A stretch of 37,806 bases of DNA, from NCBI GenBank assembly GCA_964459705.1, contig CAYWNR010000001.1:16481-54286 (forward strand). Direction: 5' to 3'. Positions 1 to 31,597 of this stretch are shown one piece after another. The translations under genes were made by a program, and so were the position numbers. Under the pieces are notes generated by a model. That model was not told where the DNA came from, did not search any database, and saw only the letters and a program-made list of their open reading frames with translations. This DNA comes from an uncultured Gemmatimonadaceae bacterium. GTDB lineage: Bacteria; Gemmatimonadota; Gemmatimonadetes; Gemmatimonadales; GWC2-71-9. Every line of letters starts with the position of its first letter. Within the stretch, counting starts at the first letter, position 1.

Positions 1-2389
1 CGAAGCCGTTCACCAGCGAGACGAAGAGATCGCCGGAGAGCGTGACCGCGCCGGTCACCGCCACGTGATCGTATTCCGTCCCCGGCGTCGTGCCGCCCAG
101 CTCCACCTCCACGTCCGACATGGACTGCACGTCACCGACCACCGCCAGCGTGGCGATGCCGAATGGAGCCCCCGGCGCCCCTCCCGGCGCGACCAGGCCC
201 GGAGCGCTGAACGCGCTGGTGCTCACGTCCACGGTGCCGGCCCCGCGCAGTCGTCCGGTGTTGACGAACGTGCCGCCGTCCACGGTGAGCGTCCGGCCCG
301 CCGAGACCGTCAGGTCCACCCTGTTGGTGAAGCTGGGGTTCGTGCCGGACTGGACGAACGTGAGGTCGCCGCCGGCAATCTCCAACGCGTCCTCGTTCTG
401 ATGCGCGGCGGACGGCCGATCCACCACCAGCGCGTGATCGATGCGGGCGAGGTAGCGGTTGTCCAGCTCCGCCCGGAGCACGCGGGCGCCACCCATGGTG
501 CCGGGTTCGGAATGCAATTCGCCTTCGCCGTCGATCAGCAGCGTGCCGTTCACCGCGAGGATGGCCGCCCGCGCCGCCGCCGGATCGCGGTTGGTGAGGA
601 GCAGCTGCCCTTCGTTCGTGAATCCCGCGGCCACGGTCAGCACGGCCGAATCGGCGCCTTCGGACGCGATCTCGATGACCGTGCTGCTGTTCGTCGCGAC
701 CGCTCCGGTGATGGCGGCGCGTCCGCGGACCCACAGGTTTCGCAGCACGTTCATGGGCGCGGCGATCGTGGCCGCGCTCCCACCGGCTTCGCGCAGCACG
801 ACGGTGCCGTTGTCCGACACGCCCCACGCACTCGCAACGGAGCCACCGGTGAGGTCGAGCACGCCGCCATCCATGACGAGCACACCGCTATCGGCCGCCA
901 GCACGACGTTGGAGAACGCCAGGGTCGTCTGCTGCCCGCTGACCCCGCCATCCCCCAGGACGAGCTTCCCAACGGTCACGGCGGCAGTTGCCGCACTGAC
1001 GGTGTACGTCCCTGACAACGTGATCAGCGCCGTGTCATTTGGCCCTGGCACGCTTCCGGTACTCCAATTCGTCCCGTCACTCCAGCTCCCGCCGGCCGCA
1101 TTGATCCACGAGACATTTCCGCCGGTCCCCGCTGCAACGACGCGCGCTACGACGCTCGTCGCGTTGTAGTCGATCTGCCAGACACCGGTTGTCAGCGTGG
1201 GCAGATACAGCGTCGGGAACGCGCCGCTTACGCTTCCCGCCGTTAGAACGGTGAACGCGTCACCGACCGCCGGCACGAATCCGTTCATCAACTCCAGTTG
1301 CAGGTACCCGTTCAGCGTCGCGGAGCCACTCACGAGGATCTGGTCGTACTCGCCGTCAGGGGTCGTACCACTGATGTCGATCAGGGTGGCGGCCGACGGT
1401 CCCAGCGGGAGGTTGCCAACGACCCTGAAGGTCCCCGGCAGGCCGAAGGTGTTCGGGGACAGGTCGCCGTCGGCCCGAACGAAGCTGGTCCCCGAGACAT
1501 CGAGCGTTCCCGTGCCACGCAGCCCGCCCGTCGACGTGAAGGTCCCGCCGGTCACCACCAGGGTACGCCCAGCATCGATGGTGAACCCGGCCCCGCTGAG
1601 CGTCGGGTTGGTCCCGGTCTGCACGAACGTCAGGTCACCGCCGGTGAGCATGCCGCTGCCGACGTGCACCGCGGAGGGCCGATCCACCACGAGCGACTGG
1701 TCGACGTGGACGCGCGCGGAGTTGTCCATCAGGACCTGGGCACGCAGGGTCCGACTGCCACCCATGGTCCCGGGCTCGACGAAGAAGTCGCCCGTTTCGC
1801 CGTCGATCTGTAGGGTACCGCCTGATACCTCGAGCGTCGCTGCGCGCGGCGCGGCCGGATCGAGGTTGGACAGGTAGAGATCGCCAGTGACCACGAGGCC
1901 GGTGGCCAGTGTCAGCACCGCCGAGTCCGCCGCTTCCGACGCGATTTCAATCAGGGACCGATTGTCGGTGAGCGTTCCCGTGATCGCGCCGAGGCCCCGA
2001 ACCAGGAGGTTTCCACTGTTGGCGAACGACGTTGCGATCGTCGCGGGACTGGCGTTGAAATCCCGCAGGACGACCGTGCCGTCGTTGAGCACGCCGGCCG
2101 CACCCGCCACGGACCCACCCGTCAGGTCGAGCACTCCACCCACCGTGACCCGTATTCCACCCTCGGCCGTGAGCGTCACCGCCGACAGCGCCAGCGTCAT
2201 CTGCCCCCCGCTCGCGCCGTCGTCACCCACCACCAGGCGACCCACGTTCACCACGGCGTCCGCGTCGGTCACGGTGTACGTCCCCGAGAGCGTGATCAAC
2301 GCGGTATCGCTTGGGCCAGGAACGGTTCCGGTGCTCCAGTTGCTGCCGTCGTTCCAGTTCCCGCCAGCCGCGTTGACCCACGAGACATT
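1..2389 (-). repeat. Two tandem 1272-bp (424-aa) coding modules inside the lipoprotein gene; the second reaches the window edge
   Basis: Module starts NVSWVNAAGGNWNDGSNWSTGTVPGPSDTALITLSGTYTV (Asn codon 2389-2387) and NVSWINAAGGSWSDGTNWSTGSVPGPNDTALITLSGTYTV (1117-1115). The modules are collinear throughout. Examples are EPGTMGGSRTLRA / EPGTMGGARVLRA, GGDLTFVQTGTNP / GGDLTFVQSGTNP, and GEYDQILVSGSATLNGYLQLELMNGF / TEYDHVAVTGAVTLSGDLFVSLVNGF. By eye roughly half the residues are identical. Confidence 0.85.
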
Positions 2390-4501
2390 CGCACCGGTCA
2401 GGGGCGGAACGACGTCGAACGGGAGGCTGGTCGCCCCAGTGACCCCCAGGGTCGAGGCCGTGAGCGTGTAGCCCGTTCCCGGGGCGTCGAGGATCAAATC
2501 CCCGAATGTCGCCACGCCGTTCGCGACGTCCTGATCGGTCGTCCCAGCGAGCGTGGCCCCACTGGGATTTGTCCCGATGGCCACCGTGACCGGATTCGGA
2601 AGCGCCGGCACGACGTTCCCCGCCGCGTCGCGCACCGTCACCTCGACCGCCGGGCTCAGTGCCTGCCCCACCGTCGTCGCGCTTGGTTGCACGGTGAACT
2701 CGAGCCGATCCGCCGCCCCCGGAGTCACCGTCACGCTCGCCGTGCCGTCCACCCCTTCCACGGTGGCGGTGATGGTGGCGGTCCCGACCAGCGCCGCCTG
2801 CACCAGGCCGTTCCCATCCACACCAGCCACGGGCGAATCGCTCGAGGCCCACGTCACCGTGCGGCCGGTGAGCGGGTTGCCGCCGGCGTCCCGCGGCGTG
2901 GCCGTCAGCTGCACCGTGGCGCCGGACGCCAGTGTCGTGGCCGGCGGCGTGACGTCCACGCTCGCCACGGACACGGCCGTCACGGTCACACTCGCCGTGC
3001 CATCCACTCCTTCCACCGTCGCCGTCACCGTCACGGGGCCCGGCGCCACCGCCGTCAGGAGTCCCGTGGTATCGATCGTCGCGATCGCACCGTCGCTCGT
3101 GCTCCACGCGACGGTGCGGTTCGTGAGTGCGTTGCCACCGGCGTCCCGTGGCGTCGCGGTGAACTGCTGGGTACCGCCCGCCGTGAGGGTCACGGTTGCC
3201 GGCGTCACGTCCACACTCGCCACCGGCACCGCCGCCACCGTCACGCTCGCCGTGCCGTCAACACCCTCGACTGTCGCCGTCACCGTCACCGGGCCCGGGG
3301 CCACCGCCGTCAACAGACCCGTGCTGTCGATCGTCGCGATGGTCCCGTCGCTCGTCGCCCACGTCACCGCGCGGCCCGTGAGCGCGTTCCCACCGGCATC
3401 CCGCGGCGTCGCCGTGAACTGCTGTGTCCCGCCCGCCGTCACCGTCGCGGTCGGCGGCGTGACGTCCACGCTCGCCACGCTCGATACGGCCGTGGCGGAG
3501 AACGCCGCGATGAGGAGGCCGCCGATGTCGGCGCGTACCGTCTGTGGCTGGCCCGCGGCGCCCAGCGTCCATTGCACCGTCGCCTGGCCCTGGCCATCGG
3601 TCACCACCGAGGTATCCGAGAGCGTGCCGCCACCGGCCGTGACCTGCCAGGTGACGGTGACGGCGGGTACGCCGTTGTCGAAGCGGTCGGCGGCCCGCGC
3701 CACGAGCGGAACCGGGAGCGCCGCCCCGGGTTGTCCGGCCTGTCCATCCCCACTCAGTGCCACGAGCGTGGTGGCGGCCCCTGGCCGCGCGGTCGCGGAG
3801 AACGTGGCCACCGCCTGCGGCAGGCGGGTCGCGCGGGCCTCGATGGTGTTGGGACCCGCGACGGTCCCCAACGTGTACCGCACCGCTGCGACCCCGCTCG
3901 AGTCGGTCATCGCCGAGTCACTGGACAGCGACCCGCCACCCGTCACGACCGCAAAGGCCACGGAGATGCCTGGCACGCCGTTTCCGCGCCGGTCCGTCAC
4001 TTGCGCGCGGAGGCTGTCCAAGAGGACCTCGCCGACGATTCCGAGTTGGCTGTCGCCTGCCGCAACCGCGAGCGCGGTCGGCACGGGCTGCACCACGATG
4101 CTCGCCCCCACGCTCGCCGTGGTCACCCCGCCACCCGTCGCGGTGACGGCGATCTGCGCTACGCCCGGTGCGTTGGCCACCACGGCGCCCGTGGCCCCCA
4201 CGGATGCGATGCTATCGTCGGAACTCGTCCAGTTCAGCGTCACACCCGGCGGCAGCGTGTCGAACGGGCGGCCCTCCTGATCCAGCACTGTGGCGGAGAG
4301 TTGCGACGTCTGGCCCTCGTTGAGGACCATCTGGAGCGCGCTGAGCTGCACCGCCCGCGGCGCGCGCGTGGGTGTCTCCGGTGCCAGCACGTACTCCGCG
4401 CAGGCGGCGGCCACGGCGGTCATGAAGGCGACCAGCAGCAGCCGTCTCGCTGCCGAGCGCGGCGCGCCTGTGTCGGGGACCTGGCGGTGGGCGCGGCGCA
4501 C
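1..4501 (-). CDS. Large surface lipoprotein/adhesin-like protein; the 3' end runs off the left window edge. Lipoprotein-type signal, one Big_2 domain, two Big_1-like Ig domains, three tandem Big_2 domains, one further Ig-like domain, then two 424-aa beta-helix/passenger-like modules.
   Basis: Not in the supplied ORF track, because it has no stop inside the window. Reverse-complement translation from GTG 4501-4499 gives VRRAHRQVPDTGAPRSAARRLLLVAFMTAVAAAC-AEY, a possible lipobox with Cys at 4402-4400. Further on comes VASVDVTPPTATVTAGGTQQFTATPRDAGGNALTGRAVTWATSDGTIATIDSTGLLTAVAPGPVTVTATVEGVDGTASVTV, which fits the Big_2 pattern. Later comes NVSWVNAAGGNWNDGSNWSTGTVPGPSDTALITLSGTYTV. I checked this frame codon by codon and it stays open down to nt 1, ending ...GDLFVSLVNGF. 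The alternative start ATG 4423-4421 would remove the signal n-region. The plus-strand ORFs listed here are T/S/A/V/P-rich or R/H/G-rich artefacts. Confidence 0.85.
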   Translation of the reverse strand, partial: MRRAHRQVPDTGAPRSAARRLLLVAFMTAVAAACAEYVLAPETPTRAPRAVQLSALQMVLNEGQTSQLSATVLDQEGRPFDTLPPGVTLNWTSSDDSIASVGATGAVVANAPGVAQIAVTATGGGVTTASVGASIVVQPVPTALAVAAGDSQLGIVGEVLLDSLRAQVTDRRGNGVPGISVAFAVVTGGGSLSSDSAMTDSSGVAAVRYTLGTVAGPNTIEARATRLPQAVATFSATARPGAATTLVALSGDGQAGQPGAALPVPLVARAADRFDNGVPAVTVTWQVTAGGGTLSDTSVVTDGQGQATVQWTLGAAGQPQTVRADIGGLLIAAFSATAVSSVASVDVTPPTATVTAGGTQQFTATPRDAGGNALTGRAVTWATSDGTIATIDSTGLLTAVAPGPVTVTATVEGVDGTASVTVAAVPVASVDVTPATVTLTAGGTQQFTATPRDAGGNALTNRTVAWSTSDGAIATIDTTGLLTAVAPGPVTVTATVEGVDGTASVTVTAVSVASVDVTPPATTLASGATVQLTATPRDAGGNPLTGRTVTWASSDSPVAGVDGNGLVQAALVGTATITATVEGVDGTASVTVTPGAADRLEFTVQPSATTVGQALSPAVEVTVRDAAGNVVPALPNPVTVAIGTNPSGATLAGTTDQDVANGVATFGDLILDAPGTGYTLTASTLGVTGATSLPFDVVPPLTGANVSWVNAAGGNWNDGSNWSTGTVPGPSDTALITLSGTYTVTDADAVVNVGRLVVGDDGASGGQMTLALSAVTLTAEGGIRVTVGGVLDLTGGSVAGAAGVLNDGTVVLRDFNASPATIATSFANSGNLLVRGLGAITGTLTDNRSLIEIASEAADSAVLTLATGLVVTGDLYLSNLDPAAPRAATLEVSGGTLQIDGETGDFFVEPGTMGGSRTLRAQVLMDNSARVHVDQSLVVDRPSAVHVGSGMLTGGDLTFVQTGTNPTLSGAGFTIDAGRTLVVTGGTFTSTGGLRGTGTLDVSGTSFVRADGDLSPNTFGLPGTFRVVGNLPLGPSAATLIDISGTTPDGEYDQILVSGSATLNGYLQLELMNGFVPAVGDAFTVLTAGSVSGAFPTLYLPTLTTGVWQIDYNATSVVARVVAAGTGGNVSWINAAGGSWSDGTNWSTGSVPGPNDTALITLSGTYTVSAATAAVTVGKLVLGDGGVSGQQTTLAFSNVVLAADSGVLVMDGGVLDLTGGSVASAWGVSDNGTVVLREAGGSAATIAAPMNVLRNLWVRGRAAITGAVATNSSTVIEIASEGADSAVLTVAAGFTNEGQLLLTNRDPAAARAAILAVNGTLLIDGEGELHSEPGTMGGARVLRAELDNRYLARIDHALVVDRPSAAHQNEDALEIAGGDLTFVQSGTNPSFTNRVDLTVSAGRTLTVDGGTFVNTGRLRGAGTVDVSTSAFSAPGLVAPGGAPGAPFGIATLAVVGDVQSMSDVEVELGGTTPGTEYDHVAVTGAVTLSGDLFVSLVNGF
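2714..3478 (-). repeat. Three tandem 255-bp (85-aa) coding repeats, each one Big_2 Ig-like domain
   Basis: Repeat starts GTGGCGAG(C/T)GTGGAC(G)TC/GACGCCG on the minus strand at 3478, 3223 and 2968, an exact 255-nt period. All three copies end in TATVEGVDGTASVTV. Copies 1 and 2 are nearly identical at protein level and copy 3 is more diverged. Confidence 0.9.
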
Positions 4502-4503
4502 GC

Positions 4504-6177
4504 TCAGAAGCTCCGCGCCAGCGAGAGCGTCAGGAACGACTCCTGGAACGCCGGCCGATTGCCGATGGCGGCATAGCGGCTATGCCGAGCCTGCAGTGAC
4601 ACGCGGCCTTCCCACGGCAGCGCGTAGCTCAGCTGGCCCGTGGCCGCGGTGACCGCGCGTCCGTTGTTGTACGTCTGCGAGAAGCTGACCGACGGCCGCA
4701 GGTTGCCGAAGCGTCCCTGACCGCGGAACCCGGCGTGCACGTTGCTCTGGCGCTCGCCGCCCTCGGTGTTCGTCACCGCATAGGACACGGATGGCGTAAC
4801 GCTGATCGTTTTCGACAGCGCCAGCTGAATAGACGTTGAGACGTTGTGGACGGTGATCTGCGGGATGCGCGTGATGACGTTGGCGTCGGCGGTCCGCTGG
4901 AATGCGTAGGCCATGCTCACCGTCGTCCGCATGCCGCCCAGCGAGGCCTGCAACGCCGTATTCGCCGTGAGGGCGAGCGACCGACTATCCACGACGAACG
5001 TGTCCACCGCGGCGTCGTTGGCAATGACGCTGTTCATCCCCGTCAAGGTCGCCGTGATGCGTCGGGACAGGAGTGCCGAGACGCTCGCCATCACGGCGTT
5101 CCGATTGGTCGTCGTGGCCTTCTGGCCGAGGAGGTTGTCGTTCTGGTGCTGGTACTGGCCCTGGACGCTCACGCGGTTCCGGAGCAGCCGCACGTTGCCG
5201 CCGGCGTTGTACGCCCGCCGATCGTTGATCACATAGGCGAGCCCGAGCGACGTAAAGCCGGCGCCGACGTACTCGTATCCGCCCTTGAGCCCGGCCGGGC
5301 CGAGGCTGACGGTTCCGTCGAGCTTGAAGGCGTAGTCACCCGACGACGAGAGCGTGAGCGGGATGAGACCGCCGACGAGATCGCCACCCGTCACGCTCGC
5401 GGGATCGACAGCCGGGCTCTGCACGTCCCGCGTGATCACCGCCACGGCCCCCTCGCCAGCAAGCACGAACCGGCGTCCGAACAGGCTCACCTGGCCGCGT
5501 GAGCCCAGCACGAGGTTCTCCTGCGGGCGGGTGTCGTAGCGCGGCCGCAGGGCGACGGGGATCGTATCGAGCAGCAGCGTGTCTCGCAGCGCGGAATCGA
5601 GCGACGACGGGTCGTCTTTCGCGGTGAGGACGAGCAAGTCGAGGAACGAGGACTGCTCTCGACCAACGCCAATCGACCCCGCGTACAGGTTGCGCCGGAA
5701 CGTCTGGTTGCCGGCCCCGCCCGCGACGACGCGCTGGGAGCGCCCGCCCTGGAGCGAGAGGCGGAAGATGCCGGGCCGGAGATCCACTCCACCACCGCGC
5801 AGGCGTGTGCCCTGCACCGTGTAGGCCGAGTAGTTCTGGCTGAAGTCGCCGGCGTGGAACGTTGCCCACTTCCAGCGCGGGCTGATGCCGAACTGGCTGA
5901 TGTTCTGGCGGAACTGGCTGCCCTCCGACGACACCAGGATGTTGAGGCCGACGCTGAAGGTCCCGAACAGGGTGAGCTGGGGAGACAACGACATCCGCCC
6001 CAATTCTCCGGGGCGCCGGGCGTCGATGCCGGACGCCCGGTAGCCCTCGCCGGTCATCACGATCTGGCCCGACATCCGCACCGGGATGGGAAGCGCGAGC
6101 CCGCGCGGCGGCTCCTGGGAAGCGAGCGTGGCGAACGGAACGGCGAGGAGCCAGAGACAGCGCGCGGCGCCGGTCAT
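4504..6177 (-). CDS. Outer-membrane beta-barrel protein (557 aa), family not recognised
   Basis: The internal ATG at 6177-6175 yields a signal peptide, MTGAARCLWLLAVPFATLA-SQEP. The 63 upstream residues of the listed ORF are R/P-rich junk that overlaps the TPR gene. The protein has alternating hydrophobic/polar strands rich in G, S, N, Y and R, and a C-terminal ...LTLSLARSF with terminal Phe, the OMP signature. Its ATG overlaps the upstream gene's TGA as ATGA. Confidence 0.8.
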   Translation of the reverse strand: MTGAARCLWLLAVPFATLASQEPPRGLALPIPVRMSGQIVMTGEGYRASGIDARRPGELGRMSLSPQLTLFGTFSVGLNILVSSEGSQFRQNISQFGISPRWKWATFHAGDFSQNYSAYTVQGTRLRGGGVDLRPGIFRLSLQGGRSQRVVAGGAGNQTFRRNLYAGSIGVGREQSSFLDLLVLTAKDDPSSLDSALRDTLLLDTIPVALRPRYDTRPQENLVLGSRGQVSLFGRRFVLAGEGAVAVITRDVQSPAVDPASVTGGDLVGGLIPLTLSSSGDYAFKLDGTVSLGPAGLKGGYEYVGAGFTSLGLAYVINDRRAYNAGGNVRLLRNRVSVQGQYQHQNDNLLGQKATTTNRNAVMASVSALLSRRITATLTGMNSVIANDAAVDTFVVDSRSLALTANTALQASLGGMRTTVSMAYAFQRTADANVITRIPQITVHNVSTSIQLALSKTISVTPSVSYAVTNTEGGERQSNVHAGFRGQGRFGNLRPSVSFSQTYNNGRAVTAATGQLSYALPWEGRVSLQARHSRYAAIGNRPAFQESFLTLSLARSF

Positions 6178-6884
6178 AGCCGATCTCCGCGGGTAGCGGC
6201 GGCGATGCGCGCCGCCTCGTCGTACCGGCCGAGCCGGTGCAGGATCTCGATCTCCTGCTCGCGCACGACTCGACTCTCGGGGTGGAGGATGCGGATGCGG
6301 GCGACGCTCTCGCGGAGCCGCGCGAGGCTGCCCGCACGTTCGTGGGCATGGACCAGCGCGCGCCATCCGCCGTCATCCTCGGGGGCCAACTCCCAATACG
6401 CCTGGCGCGCCCGCAATGCCTCGGCGGTCTGGCCGAGGGCGTCGTAGGCCTCGGCGCGCCAGCGCAGGAGCTGGGTGTCCCGCGGCATGGAGACACGCAA
6501 CCGGTCGGCGAGCCGCAGGACCGCGGCGGGGTCGTCCGCAGCGATGGCGGCTCGGATTTCGGCCCGCCGCACGAGCTCCGCCCCGGGCAGCTCGGCCGCG
6601 AGACGCTGGATCGCGGCACGACCGCCGGGCCCGGCGGTGATCAACCGATCCAGATCGCGCGCGATCTCCGCACGCGCTCGGTCCCGTCGCTCGAGGATGG
6701 CATCGTCCGGGCGGCGGAGCCCGCTGGCGCCGCTGGCCGGCATCAGCTCGCGCTCCGCGCGCTGGAGGTCCGCCACGTGTTGACGCACCGCGCGCGCGGC
6801 GGCCGCGACATCCGTCTGCCCCTGCGCACGCGCCGCCGCGGCGCCGCCGCACAGCATGACGAGGCACACGGCGCGGTGGATCAT
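6174..6884 (-). CDS. Secreted (periplasmic) TPR-like helical repeat protein (236 aa)
   Basis: Signal peptide MIHRAVCLVMLCGGAAAARA-QGQ. The rest is Ala/Leu/Arg-rich helical hairpins, for example AEAYDALGQTAEALRARQAYWELAPEDDGGWRALVHAHERAGSLARL and EILHRLGRYDEAARIAA. There are ATGA overlaps at both ends (6881-6884 and 6174-6177). Confidence 0.75.
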   Translation of the reverse strand: MIHRAVCLVMLCGGAAAARAQGQTDVAAAARAVRQHVADLQRAERELMPASGASGLRRPDDAILERRDRARAEIARDLDRLITAGPGGRAAIQRLAAELPGAELVRRAEIRAAIAADDPAAVLRLADRLRVSMPRDTQLLRWRAEAYDALGQTAEALRARQAYWELAPEDDGGWRALVHAHERAGSLARLRESVARIRILHPESRVVREQEIEILHRLGRYDEAARIAAATRGDRL

Positions 6885-11800: not shown

Positions 11801-14800
11801 GCGCGCTGGTCCACGATCACGGCCAGCTTGTGTTCCGCCTCGGCGCGGAGCTGTACCACTTCGGCTGTGTCCGCGGCCGCTTCGGAGTTGCTCAACACGC
11901 GCTCGTAAAACGCGACGTATGGGTCGGTGGCGGTGGTGGGGAGCAGTCCGCCGCGCGTGGTGCCCTCCATGGCGCGGAAGCCGTTCCACCCCACGAGCAT
12001 CTGCACCCAGTTCCAGCGCTGGAAGTTGGCGTACGCAGCGGCGAGACTCTCGCGCGAGACGGGAATCGGCGTTCGCGCCAGCTCCTGGGCCGCCGCATCG
12101 ATGCCGGCGAGAATGTCGTTCGCTTCGGATTCCAACTCGCTCGCCACTTGCTGAGCGTGGGCGAGCACGGCCGCCAGTTCCTCGCTGCGTCCGAGCCCCA
12201 TCGCGAACCCGCCCGGCGTGTACTGCGCCCAGACCTCGAACGTGAGCAGGTCTACGCCCACCACGCGCGCCGTCCCCTGGGCGTAGATCGCCAACTGGGG
12301 CTCGATCACGAGCGCGCCGATCATGCCGAGCTCGCCGGTGACCCCCATCGCGGTCACCTGACCCGTGAACGTCAGGAAGGCTCCGAGATCGCTGGTAGAC
12401 GGTCGATACCAGAGCCGCAGGTTCGCGCCCACCGTCGCCGACAAGGCATTGGTGCTCTTCGACACCGAATAGCCCATGCTCACGGTGAATCCACTCGGGA
12501 CGACGATCACCTCGGCGTTGGCCTGGATCACGTCGAGGATGGTGAAGTCGGCATTTCCTTTCACCGCGAACGTGTTGCTGCCCGCGAAGAACTGGATGCC
12601 GGCGCTGCCGCTAACGGTCTTCTCGATGTTCACCACCAGCGTCACGTCACCCCGGACGTAGGCAGCCGGTGACCACCCCACCTGCAGCGCGAGGTCGCCG
12701 GAGATCTGGTTGTGCATGTTGAAGAACGTCGCCATCGCGTTGAGCTGCGCGGCCTGGTCGGTGATTGTCAGCATCGCTCGCCCCGAGGCGGCCGAAGCAC
12801 CACCCGCGCCGACGACGTCCACGGACGCGTAGAGCATGACCGCGAACTGCCCCGCGGGTGGCATCCCCACCCGATCCGCCGACGGGCCGTTCAAGCCGGC
12901 AACGTTCTTGACCAACTGCAGGTCCGTCGTGCTCGGGTTGATGAAGAACCCGCCTCCGACGCCGGTGAGCGTCACGACTCCCGGAACGAGCGGCACCTCG
13001 ACGCTCGTACGCAGGAAGATCCCGGCGCTGAACTGGTCGGCGCGCCGCCGCATCACGCCGACCATGGCGACCTCGTAGTGCCCGAGCAGTGTTCCCTCGG
13101 TGGCAAGCGAGAGGTCGAATCCGTTCGGCAGCTCGTCGTAGCTCAGCGACGCCTGGAAGGCGACGACGTCGGGGATCTCCACGGCGAGGTTGTGGATCAG
13201 GAGATGTGTGGTCGAGTCGCTGGCGCGGACGTAGACGAGCACGCGATCCACGCCGCCCTTGAACACCCCAGCCACGTCCACCGAAGCGCCGAAGTCCAGA
13301 TAGTTCCGGACCGTGACGGAGACGCTGTCTGGACGGACGCTCCCATCTGACGCCGGCGGCTGCGCGACCGGGACGAAGATGGACGATTCCTCCCTGTTCC
13401 ACGCAACGCGCCCGACCACGAGCTTCACCTTCTCCTGGATCGTGAACGTGCCGCCGTCGAAGCTCGCCTCGCCGAGGTTCACCTCGCCTGCGGACGTGAA
13501 GCCAACGTTGTGGAACGTGAGCGTGCCACTGCCGCCCGCGACATCGAGCGCCAGGCTGCCACCGAGCGCCACCGCGAACCCCGTCTCGGTCGGTTGCGCC
13601 GTCGCCTGCCGGACCGTGAGCGTGGCCGGTGCCATGCGCACGGTGATCGGACTCGGCATGGCGAGGCCACCCCACGTGACCGCGCCATTCGCCGCGATCC
13701 GGATGCCCGGCGTGACGGTGCCGCCCGATACCGACCCGAACCGGAGCAGGTTGCTCGGGTCGTCCTGCACGTAGACGTCCGCCACCATCGACGCGGCGGT
13801 GTTCGCCTGGTTCTCGAAGTCGAGCGCGAGGTCGAGACGCCGGAGATGGAACGTGGCAACGCCGGCACTCACCTTGGTCTGCGCGGACGCGAGCCCCTCG
13901 GGCTCGTCGATCAACACCACGTGACCACCGCCGGTGACGCGGCCGTCCGGGAGCACGTGCACCGTCACCTCCTGCGGAGCTCGTGAGGTGAACGGCGGCG
14001 GGAGCGTCACGGCACCCGCGAGCTCCAGCGCCCGGGTGGCGATGCGCGCGGTGGTGAGTTGCGCGTACCCGGGAATGATGTCGATGGGACGACTGAGGAA
14101 GTTCGCGCCCTGCAAGGCGAACGAGCCGTCGGTGCCGACTTGGAGCCCGATGAAGCGCATGGTGTTCTGGAGCAGTGTGACGTAGCCCGACATCGTGAAG
14201 CGAACGACGCCGGCCGCGATCGCCACGTCCACCGCCGGTGCTACCTGCGTGGAACCGACGACCGAATCCTGCAATGCGAATTGCGCGCCGAATAGCTCGA
14301 ACTCGGCCGTACTCGTCGGTGCGGTGATGGAGATGTTCGGCAAGGTGATCCCCGTCGAGCCCACCCGGAGATCGTGGACGCTCAGCGCAAAGCCCGGAGC
14401 GAGGTCCGGCAGTCGCAGCGTGCCGCCCAGTCGCAGCGCGAAGTCCTGCGCCGTGGCATCCACGACGATCCCCGGCTGCCCAAAGCCATTCTCGATGGTC
14501 AGCGCCGCTTGTCCGATCGCGATGGGGGTCTCGGGATCGCTCACGTCAGCGGTCCCGTGGAAGCCCTGCGCGTCCACGCGCGCCGCCAGATGAATGGGCA
14601 ACGGCGTTCCCTCGGCGGATGCGAGGAACACCGAATGGATGGCACCCGAGACCTCGACGACGTTCGCGTTCGGCGCCAGCGTCAGCCGGGCGCCCGTCAG
14701 CCGGACCGCCAGCGTGTCCCCGCGGAACTGGGCCTCGGCGATCGCCGGCGCCGACGGCACGTACGTCTCGCTGTACTGGCCAAGCTCGACCTGACCGCGC

Positions 14801-17800
14801 AGCCCCTCCGCGGAGAGCTCCATATCGCGGAAGACGAGGTCCACGTCATCGAGTGGTCCAGGGAGCGTCGCGCGCAGGTCCGCCTGTAGGTGATAGCCGC
14901 CCGCGCCGCCACGGTACGCGAGCTGCGTGATCGCCACCGGGTAACCCGGCAGCGTGATGAGCGGTGCTCCCGCCTGGGTGCTCACGACGATCTCGCCGCT
15001 CAGCGGCCGGAGGTTGCGCGCGTTCAGGACGAGGTCGAAGCTCGTCCGCACGTCCGGTGGCGCCCCGCCGTCCGCGAGCGCTGGCAGCACGAGGTCCACT
15101 TGCTCGTTCGGCCGGGTCCGGATCCGCAGGGTTTCGGCGGAGAAGATCGTCTCCACCAGGAGGACCGAGGTGTCCGCCGGGTTCCGCAACTGGAGGTAGG
15201 CCACGTCTTCGCTCGGGATCCCGAGGCGCGCCGGGATCGGCAAAACCGCAAAGACGTTGCCCGGCCAGAAGCCGAGCCGGTTCACGTACGCGATCAAGTC
15301 GCCTTCTGGACTCCGCAGGTCGAGCCGCCCCTGCGTGATCGCCACCCGTGGCGAAAACCCGATCGTGAACGCGCTGTCGAACGTCGCCGTCAGGGCCGCG
15401 TACGTCTCGCCGCCGTAGCCAAGCGATGCCGTGGCGGTTCCCGTCAGCTCCACTCCGGCCGTGTCGATCACCGCGCCGGCCGACAGCACGATGCGCGCGG
15501 ACGCGCCGGTTCCGCGGGGCTCGGTGGCCGGGAAGACGCCATACACGAGATCACCGGACTCCCCGATCTCGATCCCCACCGCCAGGTCGGCGGTGACGTG
15601 GATGCGTCCCTTCGCGAGCGTGCCGGTGTTGAGATCGAAGGCGACGTCTTCGAACCCGACGTCAACGCCGGCACCCTCGGCGGTCCGCAGCTCGCCCGTG
15701 GCGCCGAACTGCAGCCAGTGCTGCGTGAGGGACGCCTGGTTGACGACGAGACGCAGGAAGGGGTTCGCCGGGTCCGGCGCCCAATAGAACGGCTGGTCGA
15801 TGCTGGCCTCCGCGTCGACGACTTCGCCGCGGATCAGATCGATGGACAGGGTCCCGGTGGCGGAGACCGTGTCGCCCGCTTGATCGCTGAGGAGCCGCAC
15901 GACAACCGACGCGTCGAGGCCGGCCTCGACCGTCCCCGAGTCCGCGTCGTAGCCGAATCGGACGGTGCTGTTGCCGATCTGCGCCTCAAGCGGGCCGAGT
16001 GCGACGACGCAGGTGGGAAGCACGTTCCGGACCGATCCGTACAGCGTCCCGTTACCCGCAATGAAGAGCGTGTCCGTAGGGGACTCGAGCGATACGGTGC
16101 CAGAAACCGCGGACGGACACGCGAGCAGGTTTGGCAGCGTGAGGTCGGCAAGCAGCCCGATTCGCACGTCGCCCGGCCCATTCTCGGACAGGTCGAACGA
16201 GCCGAAGGCGCCGCGGATGTCGGCGACCGGCGTCCGGAGCGGACGTGGGAAGTCCACGCGCTCGAACGTTCCCGTGAGCCGCCCATTCGCGAACCCCACA
16301 TCGAGCGCGCGGATCGTGAAGCGGGCCGTCTGGTCGTCAAGACCGGAGGGGATGTCCTCGATCGCGAACTCAAGGTCCACGCCGAAATCCAGCTCGGGCG
16401 GCGGCGCGTTGCTGGACCAATCCCAGCGGAATTCGCCCACGCGGTACGCGAGCGCGCGCACGGCGAACCCCCCGACGCGCAGCGGGCGCAGGGAGTCGCT
16501 GCCGGACTCGAAGGGGCCGTTCGGATCGGAGATCGTCGGAACCGCGGGAAGCTCGAACCCCGGCACCACCATGCCCTGCGGCGTGATGTGGACGTCCCGG
16601 ATCTCCGGAAGGCGCAGACTGTCAAGCGCGGGGATTTCGATGGCCGCGTCGAACAGGAACTCGAAGTCGAACTGTGACTGCGCGATGTCCCAGCGGAACT
16701 GCGGCGCGCGGAACCGTCCCAGCAGCAGGTCGACGCCTGGCAGCGGGACGCGGAAGAGCGAATCGGGCGACTCGAAGTTCACGAGCGCCGCTTCGGTTGG
16801 GGACAGGCGGAACGTGGCCGTGGCGATCTGGGTCGTCCGGTCCGCATCCGGGTCCACGTAGGCGATGTGGCCCGGCAGCTCCAGCCGCCACGCGAACGTC
16901 GCGTCGAGCGGTCCCTGGGCCTGGAACCGGAGCGTGTCGATGCCGAACCGCAGACGGGATACGCCGGGCACTAGCGCGACACTGTCGCTGAACGGCTGCT
17001 CGATGTCCGCCGACAGGATGCCGCCTCCCTCGAGCCCCAGCGTGATGCGCAGCGGCTCCTGGCCGTTCAGCAGTGCCAGCCGCCCGTGCGCGAGGAACGA
17101 CGGCTCGCTTCCGCGCTCCGCCCGAAGTGCGATCGAGTCGAGGACGAACGGGAAGTCGGCGGTCGGCTGGCCGCCCGCGGCCCCTGAGCTGGTCTTCGCG
17201 CTCAGCTGACCGGAGATCGGAAGGAGCGTTCCGCGGTCGAGCGTGAGGTCGAACGCAACGTCGAGCGCGGGCGGATCCGGTCGCGTGCCCTTGAGCGCGG
17301 GAACGACGAGCCGGAGTGTCTCGCCCGTCCGCGTGCGGAAGCGCAGTCCGTCGTCCGTCGAGTCCACCTGCACCAGGAGGTTGCCGGTCGTGTCCTTGAG
17401 CGGGACGAAGGCGGTCGCGCGGTCGCGCAAGAACAGCGTGTCCGGGATGACCGCTGTGAGCAGCTCGGCGAGCGCGAGATGCCACCCGGAGGCGTCCAGG
17501 TACGCGATCGGATACTCCTTCAGGTGCACCGTCGCGCGGCCGCCTGTGACGCGCCCGCTCGCGGGCTGAACCGCGAAGCCCTCCTCGAACGTGACCGACG
17601 CGTCGTCGAACCGCGATCCCCGGACGGCCACCTGCGCCGGTGCCCGGCCCTGGAGACGGAGGCCGTCCGCATTGACGGCCGGTGCGGCGGGCAGCACCAA
17701 CCGGATGTTCCCGCCACCCCAGTCACTGTCCTTCGGGTCGAACGAGCCGCTCGCGAGACTTGGCGTGAAGTTCTTGGCTCCGCTCCACACGAAGCCGATC

Positions 17801-21230: not shown

Positions 21231-24200
21231 GTGCTGACGCTGCGCACCCTCGGGCCACCGCGGCTCGACGGGCCGGACGGTGAGTTGCTCCGGGGCCGTC
21301 GCAAGGAGCTGGCGCTCCTCGCCTACCTCGCCGCGCGCCGCCCCCGCGCCGTGCCGCGGGAGGCGCTGGCGGATCTCCTGTGGGGTGCCCGGCCGGACAC
21401 CAACGCCCGGCAGTCGCTGCGGCAGGCGCTCCTCAGCCTCAAGCGAGCCGTTCCCGACGGGTTCGACGCGGAGGCGGACGCGGTGGGCCTCGGGACGGAC
21501 GCGCTGCAACTGGACATCTCACTCTTCGAGGCGGACCTCGCCGCCGGGCGCCGCGCGGAAGCGATTGCCCGTTGGCAGGGCGACTTTCTCTCGGGCTTTG
21601 AGGACATCGGCGGCGAGGCGTTCCGGAGCTGGCTGGAAGGCGAACGCGAGGGCCTGCGGCGGCGCTTGCAGGTCGCCCTGGCAGAGCTCGTGGATGACGC
21701 GGAGCGGCGCGGAGACAGAGCCGAGGCGGTCGTATGGGCGGAGCGGTGGACCGATCTGCTCCCGCTCGACGAACGCGGCGTCATCCGGCTCGTGCGAGCC
21801 TTGCACGCGGCAGGACGCGCGGGCGAAGCTCTGGCGCGCCGGTCCGCGTACGTGGCGCGCCTGCGTCAGGATCTCGGCGTGGAGCCCTCCGCCGAACTCG
21901 AGCAGCTCGGGAAAGAGATCGCCCCTGGCAGCCCGGCGGCGTCTCCCGCACCCGTCTCCGGCGTGCTGTTCACGCCGGACCTGGTCGGGCGTGGGGCGGC
22001 GCTCGAGGCACTGGACCGCGCCTGGAGCCTCACGACGTCAGGGACGGCGGCGCTCGTGCTGGTCGAGGGCGACGAGGGGATGGGGAAGACCCGCCTGTGC
22101 GAAGAGTTCGAGCGCCGGCTCCCGCCAGGCACGGTGGTGCTTCGGGCGCGGGGAATCGACGCCGCACGCAGCGTGCCGTACTCCACCGTTCATGATCTGC
22201 TCGGGGGGCTGCACGAGGCACCCGGCCTCGCCGGCGCACGAGGCACGGCGTTGGCCACCATCGGCGCGATCGCGCCGGGCGTGCGCGAGCGGTTCCCGGA
22301 CGCCGTCGCCGCCGGACGGGGCTCCGAGCTGGCCGAGGCGCTCGCCGACGTGCTGGCCGCGGTGGCCGCTGAGCGTCCGGTCCTGCTGTTCGTGGACGAC
22401 TATTCCGTCGCGGACCGCGAGAGCCAGGCGCTGCTCCTCACCGTCGCCCGCCGCCTGCGACACGCCGCCGTCTGCATGCTGTTCACCGCCCGCACCATCG
22501 ACACGCCGGCGGACCTGCTGGCTGAGCTGCGCGGCCGGGTCGGCGAGACGCGCATCCGGCTGGTCCCGCTCTCGAGTCAGGACGTCGAGGCGCTGCTCGC
22601 GTCGATGCTGGAAGTGGCGCCGGATGATCGGCCCGCGCTGGCCCGGCGGCTGTACGCGGAGAGCGGCGGCAACCCGTTCTACCTGACCGAGACGACCGCG
22701 ATGCTGCTCGATGAGGGTCGGCTGACCGCCGATGCTCGGGGCGTGTGGCGACCGACGGCGGGCGTGCTCGACGGCACGCTCCCGGTCCCGCCGTCTCTCC
22801 GCGAAGCAGCACGCCGCCGGTTCGAGGCACTGTCACCACACGCGCGGACGGTCGCCGAGGCAGCGGCGGTGCTCGGCCCCCTCGCCACCCTGAGCCGCCT
22901 GGCCCTCGTGACCCACCTACCCGACGATACGGTCGAGCGAGCGGTCGAAGAGCTGGTCCTCCGCCGCGTGCTGCGCCCGTCGCCTGCCGGTGCGGGGACG
23001 TACGAATTCGCGCACGACGTCACGCGCCGTGCCGCGCTTGACCGCCTGCCAGGAACCCGCCGCCGTCGGCTCCACACCGCCACGTTGCGGGTGCTCCGGG
23101 CCGCGCCGCCCTCGCCGGAGGTGACGGCCGCCACCCTCGCGCACCATCGGCGTCGCGCCGGACCGCTGGGGGGGCGCCTCCCGCCGTGGCTTGGCACGCG
23201 CGCGCTCGTCGCGGCCGGCCTCCTCGTGGTGGTCGGGTTCGCCGCATGGCTCCGGTTCGGCGCCTCACCCACCGGATTCGCCGAGCGTGACTGGATCGTG
23301 CTCGCGGATCTCGACAATGCCACCGGCGACTCCGTGTTCGATGAATCGCTCACGGCCGCGCTCTTTGTTTCGATCTCGCAGTCGCAGCACGTGAACGTGT
23401 TTCCACCCGCGCGAATCCGCGAGACGCTCCAGCGCATGCAGCGGAGTGACGTCAAACACCTGACGGAGTTGCTCGCGCGGGAGGTCGCGCAGCGTGAAGG
23501 GGTCCGGGCCGTCGTCACGCTCACGCTCACGCGGACCGGCGATCGGTACGCGCTGGTAGCACGAATCGTGGACCCCCCAACGGGACGAACCCTGGCCACG
23601 CTCACCGCCGACGCCCAAGGGAGAGCGCGCGTCCTGAGCGCGCTCGACGATCTCGCGGCGGGGCTCAGGCGGAAGCTCGGGGAAAGTACCGGCGATATCC
23701 GCGAGCGGAACGTGCCGCTGCCCGAGGCAACGACCGCATCACTCGAGGCGCTCAAGCTGTTCGCCGATGGGAGCACTGCGCTGGACGAGGACCGCACAAG
23801 CGAGGGCATCACCGCCCTCCGATCCGCGGTGGCCCTGGACGCGAACTTCGCGTGGGCGCACGCGCTGCTGGGCCGCTACCTGGCGTGGATGAACGACCCC
23901 CTCAATGCGGCACCCCACCTCGAGAAGGCGCTGGCCCTGAGCGATCGGCTGCCAGAACGGGAACGGCTATGGATCAAGCTGCTGGTAGCCGAAGGTCGTG
24001 AGGATCGTCCCGAGGCAGTTCGACGCGCGCGCGAGTACCTCGCGCAGTATCCCGACGACCGCGACGGCTGGTTCGCCCTTGGGCGCACGCTCCAGGAGGC
24101 GCAGGACCGTGAAGGCGCGCTCGAGGCATATCGCCGCGTCCTCGAGATCGACCCGCACGCCACGTCCGCGCTCGTCAATTCGGCCTTGTTGTATGACCTG

Positions 24201-25118
24201 CTCGGGCGCCCACGGGAAGCAGTAGCCGCGTTCGAGCGCGCGGCGGCGATGGACTCATCGGTCGTCACCCAGGTGGCGGGCGACCTCAACCGCCTCTACG
24301 GATTTGCCCTCCTCCGGACGGGTGACAGCGCTCGCGCGCGCGCCGTGTTCGAACGCCTCCTCTCGGGCCGCCGTAGCCAGCAGCTCAACGGCCTCCGATC
24401 CCTTGCGCTCCTCGAGGCATACTACGGTCGCTATGACCAGGCAGTGGCAACGCTCACACAGGCGATTCAACTCAGCGTCGCTGCGGACGCGCGGGTCAGC
24501 GAGTTTCGGAACCGGCTGTATCTGGCCGGGATCCACCGGACGGCGGGGCACCTGGACGCGGCACGCCAGCAGCTGCGCCGCGCACGCGAGATCCAGGTGG
24601 CCATGGCGGGTCTCCCTGGAGCCTGGCTGGGGCTGCTGGGCCAGCACGAGGCTCGCACCGGCCTGACGGACGACGCCCAGCAGGTGTTGGAAGCGATGCT
24701 CGCGAAGGACACCACGTCCTGGACCAACATGGATCGGGCCGCGATCCCGCTCGTGCGGGGGGAGTTGGCCCTTGCTCAGGGCGACGCCGCGACGGCGGCT
24801 GACGCTCTCGCACGTGCCGTGGAACTGAATGGCGCCACGTATGAGCGGGAGGCGCTCGCCCGCGCGCTGGTGTCAGCCGGGCGTACGCAGGAAGCGGTCG
24901 ACGCCTATCAGAAGACGCTGAGCGACAGCGCCATCGGGTGGGAGGTCCAGGAACCGTGGGTGCTGGCGCACTACGAATTGGCCCAACTGTATGACGCTCT
25001 GGGCGATTCGGCCGCGGCGCTGCCGCTCTATCGCCGACTCGCCGAGCAGTGGCGCGCCGGCGACCCTGACCTTCCCCTCCTTCAGAGCATTCGGCGCCGC
25101 CTGGGGCAGGGTGGCTAA
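21231..25118 (+). CDS. Membrane-anchored SARP/AfsR-like regulator (1295 aa). OmpR-type winged helix plus BTAD, P-loop NTPase, one TM helix, then a TolB-N-like/TPR C-terminal region.
   Basis: The N-terminus MLTLRTLGPPRLDG...RKELALLAYLA...REALADLLWG...ARQSLRQALLSLKR...LDISLFE...GDFL..F...F..W...ER matches the SARP wHTH+BTAD pattern. Walker A is GDEGMGKT (22068-22091) and Walker B is VLLFVDD. After the TM helix comes WIVLADLDNATGDSVFDESLTAALFVSISQSQHVNVFP, then many TPR-like hairpins to the C-terminus. An in-frame TGA at 21198-21200 makes GTG 21231 the first possible start. Confidence 0.85.
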   Translation: MLTLRTLGPPRLDGPDGELLRGRRKELALLAYLAARRPRAVPREALADLLWGARPDTNARQSLRQALLSLKRAVPDGFDAEADAVGLGTDALQLDISLFEADLAAGRRAEAIARWQGDFLSGFEDIGGEAFRSWLEGEREGLRRRLQVALAELVDDAERRGDRAEAVVWAERWTDLLPLDERGVIRLVRALHAAGRAGEALARRSAYVARLRQDLGVEPSAELEQLGKEIAPGSPAASPAPVSGVLFTPDLVGRGAALEALDRAWSLTTSGTAALVLVEGDEGMGKTRLCEEFERRLPPGTVVLRARGIDAARSVPYSTVHDLLGGLHEAPGLAGARGTALATIGAIAPGVRERFPDAVAAGRGSELAEALADVLAAVAAERPVLLFVDDYSVADRESQALLLTVARRLRHAAVCMLFTARTIDTPADLLAELRGRVGETRIRLVPLSSQDVEALLASMLEVAPDDRPALARRLYAESGGNPFYLTETTAMLLDEGRLTADARGVWRPTAGVLDGTLPVPPSLREAARRRFEALSPHARTVAEAAAVLGPLATLSRLALVTHLPDDTVERAVEELVLRRVLRPSPAGAGTYEFAHDVTRRAALDRLPGTRRRRLHTATLRVLRAAPPSPEVTAATLAHHRRRAGPLGGRLPPWLGTRALVAAGLLVVVGFAAWLRFGASPTGFAERDWIVLADLDNATGDSVFDESLTAALFVSISQSQHVNVFPPARIRETLQRMQRSDVKHLTELLAREVAQREGVRAVVTLTLTRTGDRYALVARIVDPPTGRTLATLTADAQGRARVLSALDDLAAGLRRKLGESTGDIRERNVPLPEATTASLEALKLFADGSTALDEDRTSEGITALRSAVALDANFAWAHALLGRYLAWMNDPLNAAPHLEKALALSDRLPERERLWIKLLVAEGREDRPEAVRRAREYLAQYPDDRDGWFALGRTLQEAQDREGALEAYRRVLEIDPHATSALVNSALLYDLLGRPREAVAAFERAAAMDSSVVTQVAGDLNRLYGFALLRTGDSARARAVFERLLSGRRSQQLNGLRSLALLEAYYGRYDQAVATLTQAIQLSVAADARVSEFRNRLYLAGIHRTAGHLDAARQQLRRAREIQVAMAGLPGAWLGLLGQHEARTGLTDDAQQVLEAMLAKDTTSWTNMDRAAIPLVRGELALAQGDAATAADALARAVELNGATYEREALARALVSAGRTQEAVDAYQKTLSDSAIGWEVQEPWVLAHYELAQLYDALGDSAAALPLYRRLAEQWRAGDPDLPLLQSIRRRLGQGG
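23202..23252 (+). other. Single predicted transmembrane helix within the regulator (residues 658-674, ALVAAGLLVVVGFAAWL)
   Basis: A 17-residue uncharged hydrophobic stretch, flanked by RRRAGPLGGRLPPWLGTR on the N-side and RFGASP on the C-side. I verified the codon register at 23202 (GCG CTC GTC GCG GCC GGC CTC). Confidence 0.65.
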
Positions 25119-25503: not shown

Positions 25504-25525
25504 GTTGGAGGCATACTCTTTGACC

Positions 25526-26593
25526 ATGCAATCGACCTCCCTTGCCTTCCTGCATCGCCTCCTCGACGCGCCGGGACCGTCCGGGTTCGAGACCGGCCCC
25601 GCCCGCCTGTGGCGAGACGAAGCCGCGACCCTCGCCGACACCGTCTCCGGCGACGTCGCGGGCAACTCCATCGCCGTGCTCAACCCCAAGGGCGCGCCGC
25701 GGGTCATGTTCGCGGGGCACATCGACGAGATCGGCCTCATGGTGAGTCACGTCGACGACGACGGATTCCTTTCCTTCCAAACCATCGGCGGCTGGGACAG
25801 TCAGGTCCTGGTCGGCCAACGGGTGGTGATCGCCGCGCGCGGCGGGCCCGTGGCCGGCGTGATCGGCCGGAAGGCCGTGCACCTCCTCAAGTCGGAAGAG
25901 AAGGACAAGGCGACGAAGATCACGGAGCTGTGGATCGACATCGGAGCCAAGACCCGGAAGGACGCCCTTCGGCGTGTCCGGATTGGCGACTCGGCGGTCC
26001 TCGCGCAGACGTCGTTGACTCTTCCGAATGGGCGGCTCGTTTCCCGGAGCATCGACAACCGCATCGGCGCGTTCATCGTGCTCGAGGCGCTGCGTCGCCT
26101 GCGACGCTCCAAGCCGAAGGCGCTCGTGCACGCCGTCGCGACCACACAGGAGGAGATCGGGTGGCTCGGCGGCGGCGCGCGCACGAGCGCGACGGGCCTC
26201 GAGCCGACCGTGGCCCTCGTGGTGGACGTGACGCACGCTACCGACCACCCGGGGCTGGAGAAGAAGGACGTGGGTGACGTTCGCCTTGGGGGCGGCCCCG
26301 TGCTCTCGCGCGGATCCGTGATCAATCCCGTGGTGTTCGACCTGCTTACCGAGACCGCCGAGCGGGAGAAGATCCCGTATCAGCTCCAGGCCGCGCCCCG
26401 GGATACCGGCACCGACGCGGACGCCATCGCGGGCAGCCATCGCGGCGTCGCGACGGGACTGGTGTCCGTCCCGAACCGCTACATGCACAGCCCGAACGAG
26501 ATGGTGGATGTCGGCGACCTCGAGAAGGCTGCCCGGTTGCTGGCCGCGTTTGCCCGGCGCGTGACGCCGAAGCTCGATTTCACACCTGGGTAG
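25526..26593 (+). CDS. M42 family metallo-aminopeptidase (FrvX/YsdC/TET-like), 355 aa
   Basis: Motifs seen: FAGHIDEIGLMV, SRSIDNRIGAF, TTQEEIGWLGG, VVDVTHATDHP and NRYMHSPNEMV. GGAGG at 25507-25511 lies 14 nt upstream of ATG 25526. The listed TTG 25505 start is less likely. Confidence 0.9.
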   Translation: MQSTSLAFLHRLLDAPGPSGFETGPARLWRDEAATLADTVSGDVAGNSIAVLNPKGAPRVMFAGHIDEIGLMVSHVDDDGFLSFQTIGGWDSQVLVGQRVVIAARGGPVAGVIGRKAVHLLKSEEKDKATKITELWIDIGAKTRKDALRRVRIGDSAVLAQTSLTLPNGRLVSRSIDNRIGAFIVLEALRRLRRSKPKALVHAVATTQEEIGWLGGGARTSATGLEPTVALVVDVTHATDHPGLEKKDVGDVRLGGGPVLSRGSVINPVVFDLLTETAEREKIPYQLQAAPRDTGTDADAIAGSHRGVATGLVSVPNRYMHSPNEMVDVGDLEKAARLLAAFARRVTPKLDFTPG

Positions 26594-28124: not shown

Positions 28125-28136
28125 GGGGGGTCGAAG

Positions 28137-31555: not shown

Positions 31556-31597
31556 CTGACAGAGCAGCGGGACAGAGGGGCGGAGAGAAGAAAGAAG

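Follow-up and report, generated by a model that had tools for sequence, protein, structure and literature searches.

We analysed a 37,806-nucleotide stretch of DNA from an uncultured Gemmatimonadaceae bacterium (contig CAYWNR010000001.1, positions 16,481 to 54,286; hereafter the window, GC content ~70%), with the focus on an operon whose last genes encode a tetratricopeptide repeat (TPR) protein, a predicted outer-membrane beta-barrel and a probable lipoprotein, and whose first genes encode a giant protein and a protein with fibronectin type III (FN3) repeats. Codon-position GC marked out a single run of five minus-strand genes (GC at third codon positions, GC3, of 0.85-0.86 in the called frames, and 0.86 for the giant gene), listed here in the order of transcription:

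20931 to 8878, minus strand: giant protein, 4017 amino acids (aa) from the TTG at 20931, or 4010 aa from the ATG at 20910, as called in locus L005
8881 to 6881, minus strand: FN3-repeat protein, 665-666 aa, with Pfam fn3 matches
6884 to 6174, minus strand: TPR-like protein, 236 aa, with a profile match to consensus TPR proteins
6177 to 4504, minus strand: outer-membrane beta-barrel, 557 aa, 26 strands in the AlphaFold2 model
4501 to 2, minus strand: probable lipoprotein, at least 1500 aa from the GTG at 4501, the gene leaving the window at its left end, with a lipobox and Big_1/Big_2 domains

The original prediction described a split TPR protein and a large barrel joined by an ATGA overlap, with a lipoprotein gene directly after them, and the window contains this arrangement in full. 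As read from the sequence, the start of the FN3 gene overlaps the stop of the giant gene (TGATG / GTGA), the FN3 and TPR genes share an ATGA overlap, and the TPR and barrel genes share another ('...CGG CTA TGA CC...'); between the barrel stop and the GTG of the lipoprotein gene at 4501, the gap is 2 nt. The five genes are one translationally coupled operon, in the order giant, FN3, TPR, barrel and lipoprotein, of which the TPR-barrel pair is only the tail. The N-termini of all five products resemble Sec signal peptides, the last of which ends in a lipobox. We consider the called genes to be real because of their GC3 and because of 126 homologues at 40-87% identity. The start of the barrel at 6177 (557 aa) is supported by homologues and gene calls; a 620-aa version of this open reading frame (ORF) from an upstream ATG (4504-6366, minus strand) was rejected as spurious, the extension overlapping the TPR gene and encoding an Arg/Pro-rich stretch. 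Likewise, the plus-strand ORFs 2553 to 4280 and 2687 to 4576 and the minus-strand ORF 2223 to 3107 were set aside as shadow ORFs of the lipoprotein gene. BLAST comparison of the five operon proteins with each other revealed no meaningful internal paralogy.

We examined 37 fetched loci, comparing their ORFs with the five window proteins and with a hidden Markov model (HMM) of the N-terminal domain of the giant. A homologue of the giant adjoins the barrel in every one of the 27 informative loci (those that are non-redundant and have enough flanking sequence), and a homologue of the FN3 protein is also present in 25 of these, with none in L028 (Calditrichia) and L034. The loci span Gemmatimonadota (GC ~70%), Ignavibacteriales and Bacteroidota (GC 35%), Calditrichia, and two metagenome loci (46-54% GC). 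In one locus (L036), the giant, FN3 and barrel genes form a clean three-gene operon between RuvX/YceG and unrelated metabolic genes; L034 has the gene order TPR, barrel, giant; and in the Calditrichia locus L028, next after the barrel comes a protein of 990 aa in which only the N-terminal domain of the giant remains, plus a coiled coil. The conserved partners of the barrel are thus the upstream giant (in all loci) and the FN3 protein (in nearly all), not the lipoprotein, and the TPR-barrel pair forms the outer-membrane end of a conserved envelope module with the giant, the FN3 protein and the barrel as its core. The original prediction left the two upstream overlap-coupled genes, giant and FN3, unconnected to the TPR-barrel pair, of which the TPR protein is itself dispensable. 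It also asked whether such pairs always lie beside a lipoprotein or a giant protein, and the answer differs for the two neighbours: the giant is there in 27/27 loci, whereas the lipoprotein is present in ~17/24 Gemmatimonadota loci and in none elsewhere. Two paralogous copies of the whole cluster were seen on different contigs in several metagenome-assembled genomes (MAGs) of Gemmatimonadales (L010/L016, L011/L018, L012/L013, L015/L024 and L021/L027). The giant genes of L011 and L018 are each broken up into several ORFs, by frameshifts or long-read assembly errors.

The AlphaFold2 model of the barrel, built from a 56-sequence alignment, has 26 strands (predicted local distance difference test score, pLDDT, 84; predicted TM-score, pTM, 0.74). 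The N-terminal end of the chain is disordered up to residue 32, and the barrel starts from there; the connections alternate between long ones after odd strands (mean 10.9 aa) and short ones after even strands (2-6 aa, mean 3.8); and the C-terminus (...LSLARSF) ends in a Phe and is conserved in the family as TLSLxRSF. The protein therefore combines the generic features of outer-membrane barrels, namely a signal peptide, an even number of strands, a closed antiparallel barrel, alternating connections and a C-terminal aromatic beta-signal, and, going by the model, we are confident in predicting an outer-membrane beta-barrel of classic topology. The most conserved elements of the family are the predicted extracellular loops L1, L7 (GPGYxSLGLxYLIND) and L8 (NDNLxxQK), unlike in general porins. 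In Ignavibacteriales and Bacteroidota (L030, 9881-11857, and L033, 9875-11863), the loop that joins strands 9 and 10 of the barrel, L5 and predicted to be extracellular, carries an insert of ~100 aa with a weak match to the Ig-like family Kre9_KNH; the barrels of Gemmatimonadota and of L036 are without it.

Database searches did not connect this barrel to a known family. The window barrel had no Pfam match (E <= 0.1) and no NCBIfam match. When 48 relatives (23-45% identity to the window barrel, most 23-31%) were scanned along with it, Pfam (E <= 0.01) and NCBIfam gave no family beyond stray matches to generic OMP_b-brl models, which were weak and occurred in four distant members; the family profile matched none of the PDB sequences. 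The family itself is large: clustered at 50% identity, it has 3002 representatives at E <= 1e-3, of which 1046 reach E <= 1e-30. Foldseek returned generic large barrels only: by E-value, the FimD/PapC ushers came top (E 1e-8, TM-score 0.44-0.45, 9-11% identity), the best TM-score was that to the 26-strand MtrB (0.49), TonB-dependent transporters and porins were also listed, AlgE ranked 26th (TM-score 0.29-0.30), and Slam, PgaA, BcsC and LptD were not among the top 50. We rejected these similarities as signs of membership in the ushers, MtrB or the TonB-dependent transporters, as they are those of generic large barrels with TM-scores of at most 0.49. The barrel belongs to an undescribed 26-strand family and not to a known Pfam, NCBIfam or PDB family. 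The kinships that had been proposed for checking (Slam/DUF560, AlgE, PgaA, BcsC, PelB, PorP/SprF, FadL and LptD) were accordingly not borne out by any Pfam, NCBIfam or PDB match, the structural similarity being generic only.

In the giant, a signal peptide precedes a conserved N-terminal domain (aa ~45-300), after which comes a long all-beta region; by eye, the translation of the giant further shows a helical or coiled-coil region of ~400 aa (aa ~3010-3400) and then C-terminal FN3-like repeats. It had no Pfam (E <= 0.01), NCBIfam, PHROG or PDB sequence match, searches of PDB sequences and profiles with its N-terminal domain found nothing, and the giants of L030 and L033 had no match to a known secretion-signal family. 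An AlphaFold2 model of aa 1-1100 was all-beta (pLDDT 60-88 over aa 50-650), and Foldseek matched it to strings of Ig/FN3/macroglobulin-like sandwiches. As a homologue search with these 1100 aa gave only 5 proteins, the model is shallow and moderately confident, and we used it only to describe the protein as all-beta with Ig/FN3/macroglobulin-like sandwiches and to reject, from its fold, a TamB/AsmA-like protein or a beta-helix. The first ~250 mature residues are conserved across phyla, with the motifs GWxAxLxxxPYPSPFISDWxxNP and then LPEPPQLIxP...FQWTP...GQTP...YPxDALPL...YVWQV...SEIWxF, and the remainder diverges. This domain is conserved beside barrel homologues in four phyla and was present wherever the N-terminus of the giant lay in the fetched DNA; its HMM detected the L036 giant (E 3e-60) and the L034 giant (E 1e-34), both outside the training set of the HMM.

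The FN3 protein carries a signal peptide of the signal peptidase I (SPI) type and has no Cys. A domain of ~130-190 aa at its N-terminus, unmatched in the databases searched, is followed by about five FN3 domains (Pfam fn3, E 1.3e-18; at positions ~135-656, its profile matches the FN3 arrays of titin and fibronectin). Its length is near constant in all phyla sampled (655-712 aa), as is that of the barrel (525-665 aa), whereas the giant ranges from 990 to 4035 aa. A variable giant beside a near-constant FN3 protein and barrel fits a variable fibre with fixed machinery.

The TPR-like protein likewise has an SPI-type signal peptide, and its gene has ATGA overlaps at both ends. As a single sequence, it matched Pfam TPR families below the gathering score; a 26-sequence profile matched consensus and designed TPR proteins in the PDB (E 1e-12 to 1e-9), and longer homologues had several Pfam TPR matches. 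Judged by this family profile, it qualifies as a TPR protein, predicted to consist of tandem 34-residue helical hairpin repeats. In other loci, TPR proteins of 600-680 aa occupy the same position, and the window protein is homologous to their C-terminal ~180 aa; natural fusions of a TPR part with the barrel (P0096, P0099, P0100, P0159 and P0162) share this homology in their N-terminal part. These fusions indicate that the TPR protein and the barrel act together and, with the ATGA overlap, uphold the functional coupling of the two that the original prediction assumed. Across loci, the TPR protein is optional: it is absent (L001, L020, L033 and L036), varies from short to long, occurs as a fusion with the barrel, or gives way to a beta-propeller, as in the Ignavibacteriales locus L030, where an NHL/SGL protein takes its position. 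The NHL/SGL gene (8552-9862 in L030) stands where Gemmatimonadota have the TPR gene also in the Ignavibacteriales loci L031 and L032. After the barrel, L030 has a Reg_prop / Y_Y_Y / HisKA_3 sensor kinase (11965-14868), and a similarly sized ORF is present there in L031 and in L032, the one in L032 sharing an N-terminal motif with the L030 kinase.

The downstream protein was expected to be a large probable lipoprotein with adhesin-like domains, and its features agree with this. Its N-terminus reads RRLLLVAFMTAVAAAC|AEYV (...FMTAVAAAC|AEY), with the lipobox AAAC, and the lipobox Cys is the sole Cys in 1500 residues; by the lipobox criterion, it is a probable bacterial lipoprotein. Pfam identified three Big_1 and four Big_2 Ig-like domains plus an Invasin_D3 domain, after which two repeats of ~420 aa with an unmatched fold begin at aa 705 and aa 1129. 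These tandem repeats (aa 705-1500; window positions 2-2389, minus strand) start with NVSWxNAAGGxWxDGxNWSTGxVPGPxDTALI, which we take to resemble autotransporter-associated beta-strand repeats, and end with GTTPxxEYDxxxVxG...L; they have no Pfam match. Full-length homologues of 1.2-3 kaa occur in Gemmatimonadota loci, with lipoboxes kept (GLAC, TLAC, LLAC, AVAC and VWAC). The lipoprotein was found only in this phylum; in five further Gemmatimonadota loci, a large PKD-dockerin protein with an SPI-type signal replaces it, and in Ignavibacteriales, Bacteroidota, Calditrichia and L036, it is absent, with unrelated genes in its position. A downstream gene that varies in this way in its domains (a Big_1/Big_2 lipoprotein or a PKD-dockerin protein) behaves as cargo genes do. 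The lipobox Cys begins a motif, C-[AKSDQ]-[DE]-[YF]-[VIL] (CAEYV in the window, within 4400-4501 on the minus strand; CKDYV, CDEYL and CQEFV elsewhere), which is also present in L001, L003, L004, L009-L016, L019 and L024, and a second group of lipoproteins (L007 and L025-L027) has C-[NS]-G-[IV]-[IL]-T-G-P-D. The core of the first motif, C-x-[DE]-[YF], is reminiscent of, without being identical to, the surface-lipoprotein export signal of Bacteroidota, K-(D/E)2 (PMC5080379).

In the reading that we favour, and to which we give about even chances, the barrel would serve giant beta-sandwich surface proteins as their dedicated pore or anchor in the outer membrane, and the lipoprotein would be a lineage-specific extra cargo or partner. 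Sec would carry the five products across the inner membrane, with lipidation of the last, and the BAM machinery would place the barrel in the outer membrane. The TPR protein would dock on the periplasmic face of the barrel as an optional scaffold or chaperone, and the FN3 protein would be a constant periplasmic adaptor. The giant, a string of small beta-sandwich domains, would then pass through the wide barrel to the cell surface, or be anchored there, with its conserved N-terminal domain as the element of recognition or retention; in Gemmatimonadota, the same barrel might have a further client in the large, variable Ig/PKD protein, usually a lipoprotein, whose gene comes directly after it. 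We favour this reading because of the synteny and translational coupling, the variable giant against the fixed FN3 protein and barrel, and the conserved loops; because the giant has a Sec signal but no recognisable signal for a known outer-membrane route; and because barrels of the 24-26-strand size class either pass folded Ig-like domains, as ushers do, or house a partner, as MtrB and LptD do. The protein- or lipoprotein-export role that had been suggested for the TPR-barrel pair survives in part: a role related to proteins is the best reading of the data, and the lipoprotein, being confined to Gemmatimonadota, is not the defining partner.

The gene structure, the coupling, the fold (as a model), the absence from known families and the conserved synteny were read directly from the data, and from them we infer the localisation, the direction of transport, the identity of the cargo and every protein-protein contact. 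Several points weigh against the pore or anchor role, among them this step itself where contacts, surface exposure and transport are concerned. The giant might itself be the machine, such as a scaffold, rather than what is carried. For the module, neither an energy source nor a chaperone in the periplasm was identified. The synteny is also compatible with a purely structural complex, in which the barrel is an anchor without translocation. The AlphaFold2 model of the barrel is silent on whether the long conserved loops plug the predicted lumen or leave it open, and the model of the giant is of low to moderate confidence (mean pLDDT 56, from a 6-sequence alignment). Finally, the inspection covered only ~35 loci, of members up to E 1e-57, out of ~3000 representative clusters.

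Among known systems, the chaperone-usher barrels offer a close parallel for passage of the giant. Usher 24-strand pores pass folded Ig-like subunits, and FimD and PapC resemble the barrel of the window in being large single-chain outer-membrane barrels that are encoded with their substrates and that pass chains of folded Ig-like domains which reached the periplasm by Sec. They differ in that no Usher or PapD Pfam match and no gene for a PapD-like chaperone was found here, sequence identity is 9-11%, the barrel of the window is bare, with 26 strands and without a plug or N- or C-terminal periplasmic domains, and the substrate would be one giant polypeptide in place of polymerising pilins. By analogy only, giant adhesins of the LapA/LapE type are similar as well, being giant repetitive beta-sandwich surface proteins with an N-terminal module possibly retained in an outer-membrane channel. 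Unlike these, the giant of the window has a Sec signal peptide and no RTX or C-terminal type I signal, and no genes for an ABC transporter, a membrane-fusion protein or a TolC-like protein were found here. The module shares with ushers, Slam, two-partner systems and porin-sheath complexes a dedicated outer-membrane barrel encoded beside a protein partner, and is a member of none of them. Since searches of the literature on these phyla turned up no relevant account of a giant/FN3/barrel system, and since the testable family-defining features of known systems, apart from the adjacent lipoprotein gene in Gemmatimonadota, are absent, we regard the module as a new kind of envelope system with a predicted function. 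More tentatively, it is possible that giant, FN3 and barrel make up an unrecognised secretion or display system of the FCB (Fibrobacteres-Chlorobi-Bacteroidetes) group, including Gemmatimonadota, in which the barrel would thread Sec-exported giants by way of their N-terminal domain and, in Gemmatimonadota, large Ig-domain lipoproteins also, and which would be non-homologous to the type I-XI systems and to ushers.

An unlikely alternative is a structural complex without transport, in which the barrel would anchor or sheathe the giant and the FN3 protein as a periplasmic or trans-envelope scaffold, as MtrB does around MtrA and LptD around LptE. The best TM-score of the barrel is that to MtrB, and known 26-strand barrels, those of MtrCAB and LptDE, hold a partner protein in the lumen; the ~400-aa helical or coiled-coil segment of the giant also fits a scaffold, and the conserved loops could clamp a partner. 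The likeness to MtrB extends to its being the 26-strand sheath of a partner protein that pairs with a surface lipoprotein, MtrC, and that to LptD to a 26-strand barrel working with a lipoprotein. However, the four-fold range in the length of the giant (990-4035 aa) is hard to square with a fixed periplasmic width, which ~4000 aa of beta-sandwich domains would far exceed. Neither an MtrB_PioB nor an LptD/OstA Pfam match was found, the N-terminal beta-jellyroll of LptD is missing here, and a lipoprotein of more than 1500 aa cannot be an LptE-like plug. The partners here are beta-sandwich proteins and not multihaem cytochromes; the five operon proteins have zero CXXCH haem motifs, and a porin-cytochrome system was rejected on this ground.

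Doubtful, in our view, is a Slam-like (type XI-like) translocator, in which the TPR protein and the barrel would flip or export the adjacent lipoprotein and the upstream genes would be incidental. As in Slam, the TPR part precedes the barrel or is fused with it, joining a periplasmic TPR to an outer-membrane barrel. The lipoprotein gene begins 2 nt after the barrel stop and follows the barrel in ~17/24 Gemmatimonadota loci, a share similar to that in Slam, where 52% of the genes have a lipobox gene as a neighbour (PMC5449769). Moreover, the acidic C-x-[DE]-[YF] after the lipobox Cys recalls the Bacteroidota export signal (PMC5080379). Nevertheless, neither the barrel nor its 48 relatives matched DUF560 (PF04575). 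The barrel has 26 strands, compared with the 14 predicted for Slam (PMC5449769), so that the much larger size noted in the original prediction is upheld, and the TPR protein is split or optional, being missing from four loci. Thus, three of four testable features of Slam (DUF560, 14 strands and a TPR always in the same protein) are absent; the fourth, an adjacent lipoprotein gene, is present in the window and in most Gemmatimonadota loci and absent in the other phyla, and even within Gemmatimonadota a non-lipoprotein stands in its place in 5 loci. The giant adjoins the barrel in all loci and the FN3 gene does so in almost all, and overlap coupling ties both to the TPR-barrel pair. Slam is a proteobacterial family (PMC5449769, PMC8406197), whereas the barrel family described here occurs in the FCB group of phyla.

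Very improbable is a general porin or nutrient channel that is in the operon by chance: TonB-dependent transporters and porins are among the generic Foldseek matches and four distant members weakly match OMP_b-brl, but the synteny with the giant and, mostly, the FN3 protein across phyla, the translational coupling, the lack of a plug domain or TonB box in the barrel, and loops conserved as much as, or more than, the strands all disfavour it. An exopolysaccharide secretin of the AlgK/AlgE, PgaA, BcsC or PelB type, which shares the layout of a periplasmic TPR plus an outer-membrane barrel, split and fused, is largely refuted by the absence of homology (no Alginate_exp, BCSC_C or PgaA-type Pfam match, and AlgE only 26th by Foldseek with a TM-score of 0.29), by 26 strands as opposed to 16-18, by a dispensable TPR protein, and by the absence of polysaccharide-synthesis genes (glycosyltransferase, synthase, polymerase or modification), noted earlier for the window and now also for ~30 related loci.

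Of the remaining genes of the window, the nearest is a divergent one, ~300 bp from the start of the giant gene, for a 1295-aa BTAD / AAA_16 / TPR regulator (21231-25118, plus strand; SARP/LAL-like), which may control the operon. A scan of the intergenic region between the giant and this regulator for promoters and terminators found nothing, and no equivalent of the regulator was seen beside distant clusters, the upstream genes in L036 being RuvX/YceG. Two neighbouring HEAT-repeat proteins of 514 and 628 aa are encoded at 26580-30023 on the minus strand, and the plus-strand stretches 25505-26593 and 29851-37715 hold ordinary genes, for an M42 aminopeptidase, an M28 peptidase with a PDZ domain, a GAF protein, an alpha/beta hydrolase, a PolX-type polymerase with a PHP domain and a DUF255 thioredoxin-like protein.

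Outside Proteobacteria, and notably in Gemmatimonadota, Ignavibacteria and related phyla, it is poorly understood how surface lipoproteins, and very large surface proteins exported by Sec, get across the outer membrane. Here, a large unmatched barrel family (~3000 clusters at 50% identity) is genetically locked to a giant protein that is likewise without annotation. A homologous cluster is present in a MAG of Gemmatimonas (L026), a genus with cultured species. If the module is a translocon, both the secretion route and the class of wide outer-membrane pore would be new; if it serves as an anchor, it would be an envelope-spanning structure of a new kind. In both cases, the barrel, the FN3 protein and the N-terminal domain of the giant provide a concrete three-gene target.

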